Source: an uncultured Candidatus Saccharibacteria bacterium
Lineage (GTDB): Bacteria; Patescibacteriota; Minisyncoccia; UBA6257; 1-14-0-10-44-23
NCBI GenBank assembly: GCA_964394435.1
Contig: CAYMXN010000002.1
Span: 14,196 to 78,195 of the forward strand
DNA: 64,000 nucleotides
Direction of reading: 5' to 3'
Made by a program: the position numbers and the translations under genes
The notes under the pieces: model-generated
Told to the model about the DNA's origin: nothing
The model's database searches: none
The model's input: the letters and a program-made list of their open reading frames with translations, nothing else
In this document: one piece after another, positions 19,658 through 24,503 of the stretch
How the letters are laid out: each line of letters begins with the position of its first letter
Numbering within the stretch: the first letter of the stretch is position 1

Positions 19658-20917
19658 TTATTCGTGAAAGACTCTTAACACTTCTTCGATAGTTGTCATC
19701 CCCTTTACCGCTTTCTCAAAGCCATCTTCCATCATCGTTTTCATTCCTTCAGCAATCGCCTGGCGACGGATTTCGTCTGCATTAGCTTTTTTCATAATAA
19801 GTTCACGAATTTTTTCTGTAATCTCAATAACCTCGTGAATACCAATACGGCCGCGGTACCCACTCCCGTTACAGCGTGCGCACCCCTGCCCTTTATAAAA
19901 CGCGTTGGTATCGCCAAGCATCTTTTCAGAAATCGAATCTTTGAGCGCCTTTAGCTCAACGTCAGTAAATACTTTTTTAACCTTACAGTCCGGGCAAATC
20001 GTGCGCACGAGACGCTGACCAATGGCGATGTTGAGTGTTGAGGCGATCAAAAATGGCTCGACGCCTAAGTCGAGTAAGCGCGGCAAGGTCGTCGGTGCAT
20101 CGTTAGTGTGAAGTGTTGAGAGCACTAAGTGACCAGTCATAGCGGCGTTGACGGCGATACTCGCTGTTTCGCCGTCACGAATCTCACCCACCATGATGAC
20201 GTTTGGGTCCTGACGCAAGATAGAACGCAGTCCGGTTGAAAATAGTAAGCCGGTTTTGACGTTGACCTGAATCTGGTCGACGCCCGGGAGTGAGTATTCG
20301 ATTGGGTCTTCGATGGTAACAATCGAGACGTCCGGCGTATTAATTTTTTTCAAAATCATGTATAGGGTCGTCGTCTTACCCGAACCAGTTGGACCGGTCG
20401 CGAGGATTAATCCATATGGCTTTTTCATCGCACGCGCGATGCGTCCAAGATTGAGCTCGGAAAATCCAAGCTTTTCCAAACTAAACTCATCACTCGAGTG
20501 GTCGGCGAGCAAACGCATGACGCAGTTTTCGCCGAAATAGGTCGGGGTAATAGAAACACGTACGTCGAGGTTAGCTCCGTCTTTTAAGACAATACGCAGA
20601 CGGCCGTCTTGAGCGGCTTGGTGTTCGTCGGTACGTAGTCCAGAGAGCACTTTGATACGCGTAATGATTTCCGAGTGGAGCTCTTTCGGAAACTTATAAA
20701 TATCGTGGAGTACACCGTCAACGCGAAAGCGCAGACGTAAGGCGTGCTCTTCTGGATCCATATGGATATCTGAAGCGCGCATTAAAAACGCCTGCTGAAT
20801 AATAACATCAACGATTTTGATGATTGAGCGAAACGCGTCAGCCTTTTTTACCTCCTTATCAAGCGCTTCTACGTCGGCTTGGAGTTGGGGTTCTTTTTCT
20901 GTTTCGGTTTCCGCCAT
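19658..20917 (-). CDS. pilB: type IV pilus assembly ATPase PilB (GspE family)
   Basis: Walker A GPTGSGKTT, Asp box, Walker B and a tetracysteine motif (CPDCKVK...CARCNGSGYRGR). Start set at MAETETE with TATAAT just upstream. Confidence 0.92.
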   Translation of the reverse strand: MAETETEKEPQLQADVEALDKEVKKADAFRSIIKIVDVIIQQAFLMRASDIHMDPEEHALRLRFRVDGVLHDIYKFPKELHSEIITRIKVLSGLRTDEHQAAQDGRLRIVLKDGANLDVRVSITPTYFGENCVMRLLADHSSDEFSLEKLGFSELNLGRIARAMKKPYGLILATGPTGSGKTTTLYMILKKINTPDVSIVTIEDPIEYSLPGVDQIQVNVKTGLLFSTGLRSILRQDPNVIMVGEIRDGETASIAVNAAMTGHLVLSTLHTNDAPTTLPRLLDLGVEPFLIASTLNIAIGQRLVRTICPDCKVKKVFTDVELKALKDSISEKMLGDTNAFYKGQGCARCNGSGYRGRIGIHEVIEITEKIRELIMKKANADEIRRQAIAEGMKTMMEDGFEKAVKGMTTIEEVLRVFHE

Positions 20918-21125
20918 AGCGATATATCTATTATAGTACAGTTTCATTTCGCTCACGAACAAAACCGGCGCATATTGCGAAAATATGTCAAAATCTATAG
21001 AATAACGGCACGCTTCAATATCGGTAGCCAAGTGCCCCTTCTCTGCACTTCGTGACGATATTGTGGGCTCGCCAAACCGAAAGTCTTAATCAAAAGGACT
21101 GTAGGTGCTGAGCGCAGTGAAGCAT

Positions 21126-21167
21126 TGCCAGATCGCCTGCCTGCGCAGGCAGGTCTAATGGTAGGAC
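21126..21167 (+). pseudogene. duplicated 5' fragment of tRNA-Gln (nt 1-24) interrupted by an 18-bp perfect palindrome
   Basis: TGCCAGATCG[CCTGCCTGCGCAGGCAGG]TCTAATGGTAGGAC matches the first 24 nt of the intact tRNA-Gln at 21425, apart from the palindromic insertion. Confidence 0.6.
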
Positions 21168-21171
21168 TAAT

Positions 21172-21420
21172 ATGTGGCACGTCTATCTTCTAAAAAGCCA
21201 GAAACAAAAATGGTATTATGTCGGGAGTACAAACCGACTCGAAGAAAGACTTAGCGAGCATAATCAGGGTCGAGTGCGATCGACTAAGAGCTATCGTCCA
21301 CTAGATATTGCCTACGCTAAGGAGTTCGGAAGCGAGAAAGAAGCGAGAAGTTATGAGAGAATGATAAAAGACAGGCGCATACTAAAGGAAGCGATTGTAC
21401 GAGAAATTGAAGGAAGGTAA
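21172..21420 (+). CDS. GIY-YIG nuclease family protein (YhbQ/Slx1-like, 82 aa)
   Basis: WHVYLLKS...KWYYVGSTNRLEERLSEHNQG is the GIY-YIG signature. The gene fills the gap between the tRNA fragment and the intact tRNA exactly. Confidence 0.8.
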   Translation: MWHVYLLKSQKQKWYYVGSTNRLEERLSEHNQGRVRSTKSYRPLDIAYAKEFGSEKEARSYERMIKDRRILKEAIVREIEGR

Positions 21421-21424
21421 ATAT

Positions 21425-21495
21425 TGCCAGATCGTCTAATGGTAGGACAGCGGACTCTGAATCCGCGAATCTTGGTTCGATTCCAGGTCTGGCAG
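21425..21495 (+). tRNA. tRNA-Gln (anticodon CUG)
   Basis: Manual cloverleaf: acceptor TGCCAGA/TCTGGCA, D arm GTCT..GGAC, anticodon stem GCGGA/TCCGC with loop CTCTGAA, T arm CTTGG-TTCGATT-CCAGG. U1-A72 as in bacterial tRNA-Gln. Confidence 0.85.
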
Positions 21496-21551
21496 CAAAG
21501 TTAAAATAGGTTCGGAGTCCGAGGAGCTTAACAGATTTAAATAATTAAATT

Positions 21552-21953
21552 ATGAATAATTTTGAGCTGGAAGGATGGGACGAAATAAATCAAAACGGAG
21601 GTACTATTGGAACGGGTATAAATAAATCTATTCACAAGCTCACCGTTGCAATATTCAACTCTGGCTCAAAAACCTCTACTCATGTAGGTTATCTTAAGGA
21701 TAAGGTTGAACAGCTAAATAAGAATCTGGAAGAATCGAGTAAATCCTCCGATAGGAATTCCAGAGCGATGAAGTATTTAACCGGAGCTTTGGTTTTTCTG
21801 GGTATCGTGCAAGTTCTAGTAGCTTGGTTAAGCTATTCTGCCGATCGATCAATAATTGGAACTAAGAAAAATTGCTATAAAACTGCACTTCAAACTTCTG
21901 ATATAGAATTAAACTATAGAAGCTGCCTTCATAGCAATGGACTTTCAGAATAA
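21552..21953 (+). CDS. hypothetical single-TM protein in AT-rich island
   Basis: 133 aa with one predicted TM helix (YLTGALVFLGIVQVLVAWLSY). About 33 percent GC. Confidence 0.4.
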   Translation: MNNFELEGWDEINQNGGTIGTGINKSIHKLTVAIFNSGSKTSTHVGYLKDKVEQLNKNLEESSKSSDRNSRAMKYLTGALVFLGIVQVLVAWLSYSADRSIIGTKKNCYKTALQTSDIELNYRSCLHSNGLSE

Positions 21954-21977
21954 ATATGCTTCAAATAGTGTAATTCT

Positions 21978-23009
21978 ATGGAAGAAAGAACAAGTCCTAA
22001 GCAACTTAAGTCAGATACAAGACAGTGGAATTCTGGCAGGGTTCATTTTGCAGTCATTGGTTGGCCAGGAAAACCTGAGGATAATTATATTGTTTTTCAA
22101 AAAAATTTCTTTGGAAAAACGAAAAACCAAGACCAAAAATTCAATTTACGTTTTAGAGATTGGCAAAATCTCAAGAAGCTTATTGATGGCGAGTTGACCC
22201 CTATTACTGAGTGGGAAAAGACAATTTCTGTCGTTGACAAAGAAAGTCTCGAAAAACTCATAAATGATGATCCTGATATTTTTTCAAAAGTCCTAGCAAG
22301 TCCGAATATATTAAAGTTGAGCGATTCCAGCTTCGAATCTCTTGATCGAATTGCAGTAAAAATATACGAAGTTAAGGCAGAAAAAATTGATCTAATCTTA
22401 AAAAAGATAGCTGAGACGCCATCAGCAGATCTCGAAAAGTTTAGTACCCTATTGAATGATTTGAGACTAAACCAGATTTCAATGATGACCACTTTGGTTT
22501 ACCAGAAATTAAAAATAATTGATTTGCTTGAAAAAGTTATCATATCTCCTAGAAGTAAAGAAAAGGATGTACATCAGATTTTTGAAAAACACCCATGGCT
22601 TTTGGGGAGAGCTTTCGAAATCGTTTCAAGTGATAAGGCGCTTATAAATTATCTAGAAACAAATTTACAAGAAGACCCAGAAACCCGCGTAAGACCTGAT
22701 ATAATCGCCAGCACTATTCCTTACACAAATGATGTCGTAATTATTGAACTTAAAAAACCAGGGATTAAACTTAAGGCAAAACATATTGGACAAGTCCTGG
22801 AGTATAAGGCATTAGTACAAAGACATAAGCCAAATGTAAAGAATATAAATTGTTTTGTTTTTGGTTACGAGAAAGATACCACTTTTACTTTTTCAAAAGA
22901 TGCAACAATAAAGACTTTCTCAGAATTAGTATCAGAGCTTAGGCATGAATACAAAGAATATCAAAAAGTATTAGATGTAGGAAAAGATCTTGAAGTAGAA
23001 AATTTATGA
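21978..23009 (+). CDS. PD-(D/E)xK nuclease-domain protein, Shedu(DUF4263)/NERD-like candidate anti-phage defense protein
   Basis: C-terminal region KEKDVHQIFEKHPWLLG...RPDIIAS...NDVVIIELKKP...QVLEYK shows the D...E-x-K restriction-endonuclease-fold motif and the hPWLlG element I associate with DUF4263. The N-terminal 200 aa were not recognised. Confidence 0.55.
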   Translation: MEERTSPKQLKSDTRQWNSGRVHFAVIGWPGKPEDNYIVFQKNFFGKTKNQDQKFNLRFRDWQNLKKLIDGELTPITEWEKTISVVDKESLEKLINDDPDIFSKVLASPNILKLSDSSFESLDRIAVKIYEVKAEKIDLILKKIAETPSADLEKFSTLLNDLRLNQISMMTTLVYQKLKIIDLLEKVIISPRSKEKDVHQIFEKHPWLLGRAFEIVSSDKALINYLETNLQEDPETRVRPDIIASTIPYTNDVVIIELKKPGIKLKAKHIGQVLEYKALVQRHKPNVKNINCFVFGYEKDTTFTFSKDATIKTFSELVSELRHEYKEYQKVLDVGKDLEVENL

Positions 23010-23107
23010 TATTCCGAAAAATGGTGAAGTGATAAGATTATTGTAATTATTATAAAACACTTGTGGGGGTGAGGTATGAAAATATCCAAATCCGATGAGG
23101 TCGACAA

Positions 23108-23704
23108 ATGAATAAAAACGAATTCCCTCGAGCAATTCAGTTTCTAGAAAGTTTAAATGTCTCCTACTATATCCATGCCGGATTTGCGATGCACCTACAT
23201 GGACTCCTGTCTGACCTCGATGATTTAGATGTGCGCATCGACCACCCAAATCTCGAGCAGGTTTTAAAACAAGCAAAGGAAAATTTTGCCTGCCCCGTGC
23301 TATTAACCATCGGTGGCGAATATGATAATGGGCAGTATCGCTTTGGTCGTATAGAGATCGAAGCATCAACCCCTATCGATATCTGCTCATCAATGGGAGT
23401 TATTAATGATTGGGGCACCGTCGACTTCCCTCCCTTCGCGACCTCTTCGCTGAATAGCACGGCAATCAACTATCATGGTGTGTCGGCGCGAGTTGCCTCC
23501 CCGGAGACATTGCTGTTGTATTACCTTATCTTACGCCGGAAGCAGAATAAAAATGACAAAGAAAAAATTAGAGCCCTATTTTTATCAGGGAAAATTAATG
23601 AGGATCGATTCCGCGCGCTCTTAAAAAATAACAAACATGAATCTCAAATCCTAAACCTATATCGGTATTATAAAAAAATAGCTTCTAAACCTAGGAATAA
23701 GTAG
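23108..23704 (+). CDS. nucleotidyltransferase, Lnu/ANT-like (Pol-beta superfamily)
   Basis: VSYYIHAGFAMHLHGLLSDLDDLDVRID follows the hG[GS]x9-13Dh[DE]h NTase signature. Overall pattern resembles lincosamide/aminoglycoside nucleotidyltransferases. Confidence 0.5.
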   Translation: MNKNEFPRAIQFLESLNVSYYIHAGFAMHLHGLLSDLDDLDVRIDHPNLEQVLKQAKENFACPVLLTIGGEYDNGQYRFGRIEIEASTPIDICSSMGVINDWGTVDFPPFATSSLNSTAINYHGVSARVASPETLLLYYLILRRKQNKNDKEKIRALFLSGKINEDRFRALLKNNKHESQILNLYRYYKKIASKPRNK

Positions 23705-23726
23705 TTTTTACCAAGAAAATAATTTT

Positions 23727-24503
23727 ATGCTTCACGATTTCCTCATCTTCGCCCTTAAACAGGCGCGGGCGGCGCTGTTTGCCGGAGTGTTTTTGTTTTT
23801 GATTTTCGCCTCAAAATATATTGCGATTCCGGGATTATATCGCTACGACTTTCTCTTTTTGGCCGCAGTAGCCATTCAGCTCCTGATGCTTCTGTTTAAG
23901 CTCGAGACAGTAGATGAAGCTAAGACTATCGTCCTCTTTCACCTCATCGGTCTTATCCTTGAGATTTATAAAACCAGTCCAGCGATTGGGTCGTGGACGT
24001 ATCCGGAGCCTGGGTACCTGAAGATTTTTACCGTGCCACTGTATAGCGGATTTATGTACGCTTCGATTGGCAGCTATATCGCTCACGCGTGGAAGGGCTT
24101 TAACCTTAAACTCATCAACTCCCCTCGCTATCTCTATAGCATCATCCTCTGCGCACTTATCTATCTCAACTTTTTTACCAACCACTTTATATATGACTTT
24201 CGTCTTTTTCTTATCGCGGGAATCTTTATCTTATACCGAAAAGCTTACGTTGAGTTTACGCCGGATAAGCGCACCTATCGCCTTCCGCTTAATGTCAGCT
24301 TTTTACTCATCTCGCTCTTTGTGTGGATAGCGGAAAATATCGGAACGTTTTATGGCGCGTGGCAGTACCCTTCGCAGATTCACGCGTGGCAAATTGTTTC
24401 GTTTCAAAAAATCACCTCGTGGTTTTTGATGGTGATTATCTCCTTTATCATCGTCGCGTATTTAAAACATGTTAAGGCGGAGCGTACTTTGAATGCCGCT
24501 TAG
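23727..24503 (+). CDS. polytopic membrane protein (DUF817-like)
   Basis: 258 aa, about 8 predicted TM helices. Length and hydrophobicity pattern are consistent with the DUF817 family. Confidence 0.5.
   Translation: MLHDFLIFALKQARAALFAGVFLFLIFASKYIAIPGLYRYDFLFLAAVAIQLLMLLFKLETVDEAKTIVLFHLIGLILEIYKTSPAIGSWTYPEPGYLKIFTVPLYSGFMYASIGSYIAHAWKGFNLKLINSPRYLYSIILCALIYLNFFTNHFIYDFRLFLIAGIFILYRKAYVEFTPDKRTYRLPLNVSFLLISLFVWIAENIGTFYGAWQYPSQIHAWQIVSFQKITSWFLMVIISFIIVAYLKHVKAERTLNAA

Follow-up and report, generated by a model that had tools for sequence, protein, structure and literature searches.

A putative homing-type GIY-YIG cassette at the 5' end of tRNA-Gln in Patescibacteria

In a 64,000-nucleotide (nt) stretch of contig CAYMXN010000002.1 from an uncultured Candidatus Saccharibacteria bacterium (the window in what follows), a gene for an 82-amino-acid (aa) GIY-YIG protein lies between a second copy of the 5' end of tRNA-Gln, itself split by an 18-bp perfect palindrome (PAL), and the intact tRNA-Gln gene. 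Comparison with related loci makes it probable that this is a free-standing, homing-type GIY-YIG cassette that is specialized on the tRNA-Gln 5' end in Patescibacteria and rebuilds the tRNA it invades. Among the described systems that come closest are the Seg genes of T-even phages and the intron-encoded I-TevI; SegB, a GIY-YIG enzyme, acts in the tRNA gene region of T4 (PMC13096335, PMC2988022). Like the window cassette, these are GIY-YIG genes (free-standing in the case of Seg) wedged against a conserved gene and patchily distributed among relatives, and the expected mode of spread is the same, by break and repair with co-conversion of flanks. Their proteins, however, have 200 to 250 aa and a DNA-binding domain, whereas the window protein is a catalytic domain alone; they show neither duplication of the target gene nor a conserved palindrome, and they reside in phages rather than in a cellular chromosome.

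Mitochondrial endonuclease open reading frames (ORFs) of the Allomyces atp6 type bring along a substitute for the gene end that they displace, and the old end persists as a pseudogene. As there, the window holds an endonuclease ORF in an essential gene together with a gene segment that restores it, with the displaced fragment beside the ORF. In Allomyces the target is the 3' end of a protein gene, in the window the first 24 nt of a tRNA. The fragment in the GIY-YIG cassettes is in most cases identical to the resident tRNA and is interrupted by PAL; a LAGLIDADG-bearing locus described below (L282), in which the fragment differs from the tRNA, is closer to the Allomyces pattern. In the rRNA genes of candidate phyla radiation bacteria, GIY-YIG-encoding insertions have been described that are neither group I nor group II introns (PMC11270868). 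These are small GIY-YIG ORFs in structural RNA genes of the same phylum, placed at stem-loop tips or bases and lacking a ribozyme, but they interrupt the rRNA, whereas the tRNA here stays intact by virtue of the 5' duplication; neither a palindrome nor an association with tRNA is reported in that study (PMC11270868). Patescibacteria tRNA genes are also known to contain group I introns, some with endonuclease ORFs, such as an HNH gene in tRNA-Asn (PMC13011429). They share with the window cassette that they are mobile elements in tRNA genes, some of them endonuclease-bearing, but they are anticodon-loop ribozymes, whereas the cassette concerns the D arm and 5' end of an uninterrupted tRNA; tRNA-Gln and GIY-YIG go unmentioned in that report (PMC13011429).

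The window protein itself resembles the UPF0213/COG2827 proteins (E. coli YhbQ type), which have about 80 to 100 aa, a GIY-YIG domain only, and the same motif order; two of these are its nearest solved relatives, although the sequence similarity is weak (BH0048, 1zg2, E = 0.004; EF2693, 1ywl, E = 0.014). The palindrome has parallels of another kind. Yeast mitochondrial GC clusters and Rickettsia palindromic elements are short, mobile, GC-rich palindromes that enter genes without disturbing the reading frame, and PAL is likewise a GC-rich palindrome in AT-rich genomes that occurs in frame in conserved protein genes. It differs from them in being only 18 bp long, identical across many lineages, read as LPAQAG in most coding copies, and tied to the 5' flank of GIY-YIG genes, and from miniature inverted-repeat transposable elements or repetitive extragenic palindromes in having neither a target-site duplication nor a flank signature. 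A literature search found no mention of the palindrome, of LPAQAG, or of a bacterial GIY-YIG/tRNA-Gln arrangement; GIY-YIG together with tRNA-Gln appeared in fungal mitochondria only.

Layout of the window cassette and its predicted nuclease

The intact, functional copy of tRNA-Gln(CTG) occupies positions 21425 to 21496 of the plus strand (ARAGORN; Rfam tRNA, 60.9 bits, E = 3e-12). Upstream on the same strand, its 5' end is present a second time in two halves. The left half (21124 to 21135) consists of a 2-nt leader, AT, at 21124 to 21125, which repeats 21423 to 21424, and of tRNA nt 1 to 10, the 5' strand of the acceptor stem (TGCCAGATCG), and is an exact copy of 21423 to 21434; the right half (21154 to 21167) is nt 11 to 24, the D arm (TCTAATGGTAGGAC), and exactly copies 21435 to 21448. 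Between tRNA positions 10 and 11 of this spare copy lies PAL (CCTGCCTGCGCAGGCAGG, 21136 to 21153), whose boundary can be shifted by 1 nt, with a G on both flanks, and which is single-copy in the window even at three mismatches. The first-pass annotation of this DNA had described nt 1 to 24 of tRNA-Gln as duplicated at 21126 to 21167 and interrupted by a perfect palindrome of 18 bp, and alignment reproduces this exactly, with the two parts in tRNA order at 21126 to 21135 and 21154 to 21167. The gapped pattern TGCCAGATCG-N{0,18}-TCTAATGGTAGGAC has exactly two matches in the 64 kb, one in the tRNA (gap 0) and one at 21126 to 21167 (gap 18), and no match in any of 100 shuffled sequences.

The same annotation had placed an 82-aa GIY-YIG ORF behind the fragment and the complete tRNA 4 nt past its stop, which is also what we find: the ORF extends from 21172 to 21420 on the plus strand, its residues 1 to 68 match PF01541 (59.7 bits against a cutoff of 22.6, E = 3.5e-16), and a 4-nt spacer, ATAT, separates its stop from the tRNA start at 21425. 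A group I intron or other known RNA was considered and rejected, as an Rfam search of positions 20500 to 22500 at E values up to 1 found the tRNA only and ARAGORN reads the tRNA as continuous; lying between fragment and tRNA, the nuclease ORF is in neither an intron nor an intein. Residues Y5, Y16, G18, R26, H30, and E62 are invariant in 50 cassette proteins, and their putative catalytic roles were assigned by motif order. In the 82 aa, with a single Pfam domain over residues 1 to 68, there is no separate DNA-recognition domain of the kind found in I-TevI and Seg. Comparison of the nuclease with the PADLOC defense families gave only a marginal match (E = 0.003), and libraries of defense-system and phage families returned nothing informative on it.

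A consensus scan located a promoter-like site, TTGCGA-17-TAGAAT, at 20975 to 21003 of the plus strand, which is likely the original tRNA-Gln promoter and would now serve fragment, ORF, and tRNA jointly, its score alone not being above shuffle expectation. The region around the TAGAAT -10 box (TATAGAATAACGGCACG) is invariant across the window and its two closest relatives (L007 and L008), with an indel of about 70 nt relative to L008 between this region and the fragment. The spacer from the -10-like box to the fragment (21020 to 21123 in the window) measures about 70 nt in the window and about 50 nt in L007, where an 18-nt stretch is missing, and the segment is wholly missing in L008; a hairpin in it (stem at about 21082 to 21100) has paired changes, AGTCTT/AAGGACT in the window versus GGTCCC/GGGACC in L007. 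The AGGA of the D-arm copy stands 5 nt before the ATG as a candidate ribosome-binding site, but a Shine-Dalgarno-like core with workable spacing is present in only 23 of 50 cassettes, so this role of the D-arm remnant is tentative. In folds of the leader RNA the PAL hairpin forms, while the fold as a whole is no better than that of shuffled sequences (z = -0.11 for RNA and -1.59 for DNA).

The ratio of nonsynonymous to synonymous divergence (dN/dS) of the ORF is 0.088 between the window and L007 and 0.05 to 0.24 in other pairs, indicating that the nuclease ORF is under purifying selection. Its synonymous divergence (dS) among the window, L007, and L008 ranges from 0.66 to saturated, while the 45 nt over fragment and PAL, as well as the entire tRNA, show no change among the three. 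Since the locus contains no second PAL from which conversion could proceed, the invariance of PAL argues for selection or repeated renewal.

The cassette family and the slot beside tRNA-Gln

Relatives were retrieved by protein similarity to the ORF alone, blind to PAL, and their contigs were then fetched. Five of these loci, with 87% (L007), 76% (L008), 64% (L009), 63% (L010), and 60% (L254) protein identity, all have the same order of nt 1 to 10 of their own tRNA-Gln, PAL, nt 11 to about 24, the ORF, and the intact tRNA-Gln. The acceptor 5' strand of the tRNA reads TGCCAGA in L007 and L008, TGGGGGA in L009, and TGCGGGA in L010 and L254, and in each locus the fragment follows the tRNA of that locus. 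PAL is identical in four of the five, down to 63% identity, and carries one mismatch in L254; the distant homologues P0012 (56%) and P0015 (47%) have neither PAL nor a tRNA neighbor. Upstream of another distant GIY-YIG homologue without PAL, in L251, a Y1 (IS200/IS605-type) transposase gene lies at a distance of about 600 bp (positions 243 to 890), which may be coincidence; that locus has no adjacent tRNA-Gln, its sole tRNA being a tRNA-Pro about 450 nt upstream of the homologue.

A metagenome scan for PAL followed by TCTAA, which thus selected for exact PAL, gave at least 120 loci, and together with genome matches it yielded at least 54 non-redundant complete cassettes in Patescibacteria. PAL is exact or has one mismatch in every cassette found, a sample in which its variation is under-represented because the metagenome loci were chosen by exact PAL. 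The ORF has 79 to 89 aa in 51 of 54 cassettes (64, 117, and 118 aa in the rest), pairwise identity of the ORFs runs from 43 to 100% with a median of 58%, and the gap from stop codon to tRNA is mostly 1 to 9 nt, with a mode of 4. In nine cassettes (L009, L179, L183, L232, L236, L148, L160, L223, and L147) the ORF has no stop of its own and reads 15 nt into the tRNA, ending at the D-loop TAA with C-termini such as CGIV, GIV, or CPIV. The left 10 nt equal the first 10 nt of the resident tRNA in 42 of 53 non-redundant cassettes, with 17 arm types represented, and the duplication reaches 6 to 8 nt upstream of the tRNA in L182, L236, and L037. L143 and L149, which share an orthologous upstream gene, differ in the acceptor arm of the tRNA, and their fragments differ in parallel, each agreeing with the tRNA beside it. 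The acceptor stem is fully paired (7 of 7) in all 51 cassette tRNAs amenable to scoring. Chance or an assembly artifact as the source of the arrangement is ruled out by the occurrence of the same layout, with diverged ORFs, in independent Logan, JGI, ENA, and NCBI assemblies. Sequence comparison thus indicates that the window cassette is one member of a large Patescibacteria family of selfish cassettes, of which we found no published description.

Syntenic loci, reached through homologues of PilB, show what else the position beside tRNA-Gln can hold. The GIY-YIG cassette lies in pilB-tRNA-Gln synteny in the window, L007, and L008. The empty site is represented by L285, a relative with 74% PilB identity, where tRNA-Gln(CTG) stands next to pilB by itself, unaccompanied by fragment, PAL, or ORF. 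Two others with 77 to 78% PilB identity have LAGLIDADG ORFs of 228 aa (L282) and 230 aa (L283) in the same slot (PF14528, 28 to 36 bits against a cutoff of 22.5); here a tRNA-Gln 5' fragment without PAL is followed by the LAGLIDADG ORF and then by the intact tRNA-Gln (L282, 1480 to 2330; L283, 1600 to 2450; both minus strand), which means that duplication of a tRNA fragment does not need PAL. The L282 fragment, TGCCAGCTTCGCTTAGTGGTAGGA, and the intact tRNA, TGGGGGATAGTGCAATGGTCACAC, have quite different D arms, as if the endonuclease had brought with it a substitute for part of the gene or for the tRNA as a whole. In L047 the slot behind a PAL-split pseudo-tRNA is occupied by an HNH-like ORF, called from its DH...N...CANCHR motif alone and without a Pfam match, which likewise ends at the tRNA D-loop TAA. 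L120 has a GIY-YIG pseudogene with an in-frame stop, and about 19 distinct loci (23 sites before deduplication) retain only the PAL fragment and the tRNA, 30 to 170 nt apart. Judged from these loci, the series of slot states is the pattern of gain, decay, loss, and replacement of homing endonuclease genes. The first-pass annotation had seen in the window the footprint of a selfish GIY-YIG element that duplicated the 5' part of the tRNA and had called for alignment with relatives in search of an empty site. That alignment supplies one in L285, with a LAGLIDADG gene in the same slot in L282 and L283, and the core idea of a selfish element is borne out by this polymorphism and by ORF decay and loss elsewhere. 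A passive footprint does not fit, since the fragment and PAL are 100% conserved between relatives in which dS of the ORF runs from 0.66 up to saturation and the layout recurs throughout the family.

Several loci carry PAL inside longer tRNA copies. In L181, L171, and L202 an intact tRNA-Gln and the GIY-YIG gene are followed by a full-length tRNA-Gln with PAL at 10/11; L146 shows only the GIY-YIG gene and PAL-bearing tRNA, its contig beginning inside the ORF. L220, L244, and L182 have the order fragment with PAL, GIY-YIG gene, tRNA, and PAL-bearing tRNA, and in L180 the ORF is flanked by a PAL on each side. An additional PAL in the anticodon loop, at 37/38 in L181 and L247 and at 35/36 in L202, makes three distinct tRNA-Gln pseudogenes with PAL at both D arm 10/11 and anticodon loop (L181, 810 to 871; L202, about 1656 to 1715, minus; L247, 25 to 86, minus), and L182 (1066 to 1160) has a PAL-like insert in the T loop of a tRNA-Gln pseudogene next to the GIY-YIG gene. 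The T and anticodon stems are intact in these four pseudogenes. Among the PAL-bearing full-length tRNA-Gln copies beside GIY-YIG genes, the T stem pairs 5 of 5 in 12 of 13, and the acceptor stem is defective in 10 of 13 because the 5' strand adjoining PAL does not fit the 3' strand of the same copy. The damage, with a foreign or defective 5' acceptor strand and an intact T stem, is confined to the PAL side. Break repair or an import of donor sequence would leave such a pattern, which is suggestive of co-conversion of the flanks, although relaxed selection or error-prone repair could also produce it.

PAL is also found at 9/10 or 10/11 in 5' fragments of tRNA-Glu (L135 and L200) and tRNA-Thr (L104, two sites, minus strand); these fragments are short, lie just upstream of an intact tRNA, and have no ORF. 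The tRNA-Glu fragment of L200 contains a second, different GC-rich hairpin, and in L130 (position 538) PAL lies in the D loop of an unrelated pseudo-tRNA. On the practical side, ARAGORN and other tRNA finders miss or miscall PAL-bearing tRNA copies, and gene callers run GIY-YIG ORFs through PAL.

The palindrome beyond the cassette

The palindrome is not confined to this locus, being present upstream of several GIY-YIG subfamilies and dispersed in Patescibacteria genes. Among 1.84 billion clusters, the 150 best-matching representatives include 12 with a peptide of the PAL type, drawn from several GIY-YIG subfamilies at 41 to 62% identity; in 10 or 11 of those 12 it stands directly upstream of the GIY-YIG domain in over-extended gene calls, and at least one has the 5' fragment of another tRNA around PAL. 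With PAL or variants of it 6 to 30 nt upstream of several GIY-YIG subfamilies, the available sequences indicate that PAL is tied to this GIY-YIG clade in general, beyond the window locus.

An exact-PAL scan with one genome per species gave at least 120 stretches, with 125 copies among the matches listed. Of these, 96 lie in loci below 50% GC, mostly from Patescibacteria, and 78 lie in open frames of at least 150 aa, where 56 read LPAQAG. Comparison with solved homologues shows PAL as exactly six inserted residues in UvrD (L054 versus 4c2u) and in GatB (L039 versus 3kfu). Housekeeping genes with PAL inside them include those for a UvrD-like protein (L054, 1378 to 4314), GatB (L039, 4321 to 5853), TopA (L021, 5158 to 7431), PolA (L038, 163 to 2622), and RecJ (L050, 4913 to 6802), with about 70 further loci among L011 to L130. 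Repeats in the flanks of these copies are like those at control positions (longest direct repeat, 5.70 nt versus 5.33 nt at controls; inverted repeats, 5.35 versus 5.16), a target-site duplication is absent, and most PAL copies have no GIY-YIG ORF within 8 kb. We considered PAL as a chance GC-rich word; this holds for some GC-rich genomes and most matches in viral contigs, where the copies look like chance or native coding, and is countered elsewhere by the preponderance of copies in loci below 50% GC. The copies in housekeeping genes have the look of a hitherto undescribed micro-insertion element that keeps the reading frame, which is a lead apart from the cassette and may be the more novel of the two.

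One further architecture was found in a WOR-3 HsdR gene (L080, 3958 to 7494, minus strand), in which a GIY-YIG domain (PF01541, E = 4.8e-16) lies in frame inside the type I restriction subunit, flanked by inverted PAL arms, CCTGCCTGCGCC... and ...GGCGCGGCAGGCAGG. Three further inserts of the PAL type lie in the gene, namely an exact copy of PAL and two PAL-like palindromes that are longer or variant. No other locus was found with cargo between split PAL arms.

Proposed mechanism and competing explanations

If the cassette is a homing element, as we think probable, its place between the tRNA's own promoter and the tRNA would let the nuclease be expressed from the tRNA promoter and the tRNA be released from the same transcript. 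The nuclease would break cassette-free tRNA-Gln genes in or near the D arm, at about position 10/11, the place that PAL occupies, and repair from a cassette-bearing copy would have its left homology arm in the 5' fragment and its right arm in the intact tRNA; repair with both arms would mean that the essential tRNA is always rebuilt. PAL would be part of the element, and by splitting the 24-nt direct repeat into 10 and 14 nt it would destroy the site in the spare copy and guard the cassette against re-cleavage and repeat-mediated deletion; it may also be a binding site for the domain-only nuclease. We infer both the cleavage site and the role of PAL from the arrangement of these sequences.

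Several observations weigh against this account. No gain event between near-identical genomes was seen. The D-arm sequence of the intact tRNA next to the nuclease is that of the empty-site relative L285, so genomes with the cassette would still offer any target confined to the tRNA. A catalytic-domain-only protein of 82 aa has no evident means of reading a long specific site. Divergence between the window and L008 is alike for the nuclease (76% identity) and PilB (79%), which indicates that the cassette has long been kept in the lineage of the window; it looks vertically inherited, which also fits a domesticated gene. As a test for horizontal replacement, flank and cassette dS in L143/L149 and in window/L008 were too saturated or the segments too short. 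Finally, because PAL occurs in many genes without a nearby GIY-YIG ORF, its role cannot be limited to the cassette.

The D arm shared with the empty site and the missing recognition domain keep alive two other readings. The small GIY-YIG protein could be a PAL-specific nuclease, either a dimer that reads the palindrome or an enzyme specific for a hairpin or cruciform structure, with PAL as the mobile or recognized unit, the tRNA-Gln cassette as an autonomous "master" by virtue of a strong promoter, and the PAL-only copies within genes or tRNA pseudogenes as non-autonomous derivatives or former insertion sites. We regard this as unlikely: the invariance of PAL between flanks that differ according to the tRNA (Gln, Glu, or Thr), its recurrence upstream of several GIY-YIG subfamilies, the inverted PAL arms around the HsdR-borne domain, the additional inserts in anticodon and T loops, and the exact insertions in UvrD and GatB all favor it, but most PAL copies are remote from any GIY-YIG ORF, their flanks bear no duplication or repeat excess, the LAGLIDADG cassettes duplicate the tRNA fragment in the absence of PAL, and L080 is the single GIY-YIG ORF with split PAL arms that was found. 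GIY-YIG enzymes are, moreover, hydrolytic nucleases for which we know of no strand-transfer activity. In the other such reading, a transcript consisting of nt 1 to 10, the PAL hairpin, and nt 11 to 24 would guide the nuclease, the hairpin serving as a handle for the protein and the flanks pairing with the tRNA-Gln gene to give specificity. A constant hairpin whose variable flanks co-vary with the neighboring tRNA across 17 arm types, a nuclease lacking a DNA-binding domain, and the same hairpin between tRNA-Glu and tRNA-Thr flanks would agree with a guide, but such co-variation is equally expected from duplication or gene conversion, the fragment of the LAGLIDADG cassettes has no hairpin, the leader folds no better than shuffled RNA, and PAL persists in ORF-less fragments and inside unrelated genes; to our knowledge guided GIY-YIG enzymes have no precedent, and we consider the reading very unlikely. 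A broader proposal, possible but rather improbable, is that PAL and the minimal GIY-YIG protein form an undescribed two-part mobile system, in which specificity would come from PAL, acting either at the DNA level or as an RNA hairpin whose flanks match the tRNA. PAL itself would move through Patescibacteria genomes, entering housekeeping genes as an in-frame insertion of six codons and also invading tRNA loops, with the tRNA-Gln cassette as its autonomous source.

The similar divergence of nuclease and PilB would also suit a stable, host-beneficial unit of nuclease and PAL leader, co-transcribed with tRNA-Gln, vertically inherited, immobile, and perhaps maintaining, regulating, or defending the locus. 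Strong purifying selection (dN/dS of about 0.09), the syntenic position in the window, L007, and L008, and the constraint on PAL and fragment are in keeping with such domestication, which we nonetheless find decidedly unlikely: syntenic relatives lack the cassette or hold another endonuclease family, ORF pseudogenes and ORF-less remnants are common, the GIY-YIG tree does not track the tRNA acceptor type, and the PADLOC comparison went no further than its marginal match. The first-pass annotation had also suggested that the fragment might mark the attachment (att) junction of an adjacent AT-rich island, which on this account would be borne by an integrase. Downstream of the tRNA, positions 21552 to 23704 do have 33 to 41% GC compared with about 48% elsewhere, and the region differs between relatives. 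No integrase is present among the ORFs at 21552 to 24503, however, no copy of the 22-nt tRNA 3' end occurs in the window at up to three mismatches, the fragment is a 5' piece upstream of the tRNA and thus on the side opposite the island, and in L007 and L008 the unit of fragment, ORF, and tRNA stands next to unrelated downstream genes; an integration scar is therefore extremely improbable. The 21552 to 23704 segment itself is a variable islet of three ORFs, in whose place L007 and L008 have unrelated genes; downstream of the tRNA, no synteny with L007, L008, or L285 was found that would define its ends. Its 343-aa ORF (21978 to 23009) matches phrog_6203 (E = 3.7e-23) and, below threshold, the C-terminal domain of Shedu SduA (23.6 bits, cutoff 27).

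On the homing reading, a selfish nuclease gene can settle in an essential gene, the sole tRNA-Gln gene seen in these loci, without killing it, because duplication of the first 24 nt lets the tRNA be rebuilt every time, and at least three endonuclease families, GIY-YIG, LAGLIDADG, and HNH-like, use the same slot. If the near-invariant 18-bp palindrome gives specificity to the 82-aa nuclease, the two would make a very small, programmable-looking nuclease system. PAL in frame in UvrD, GatB, TopA, PolA, and other proteins would be a new kind of micro-mobile element in extremely reduced genomes.

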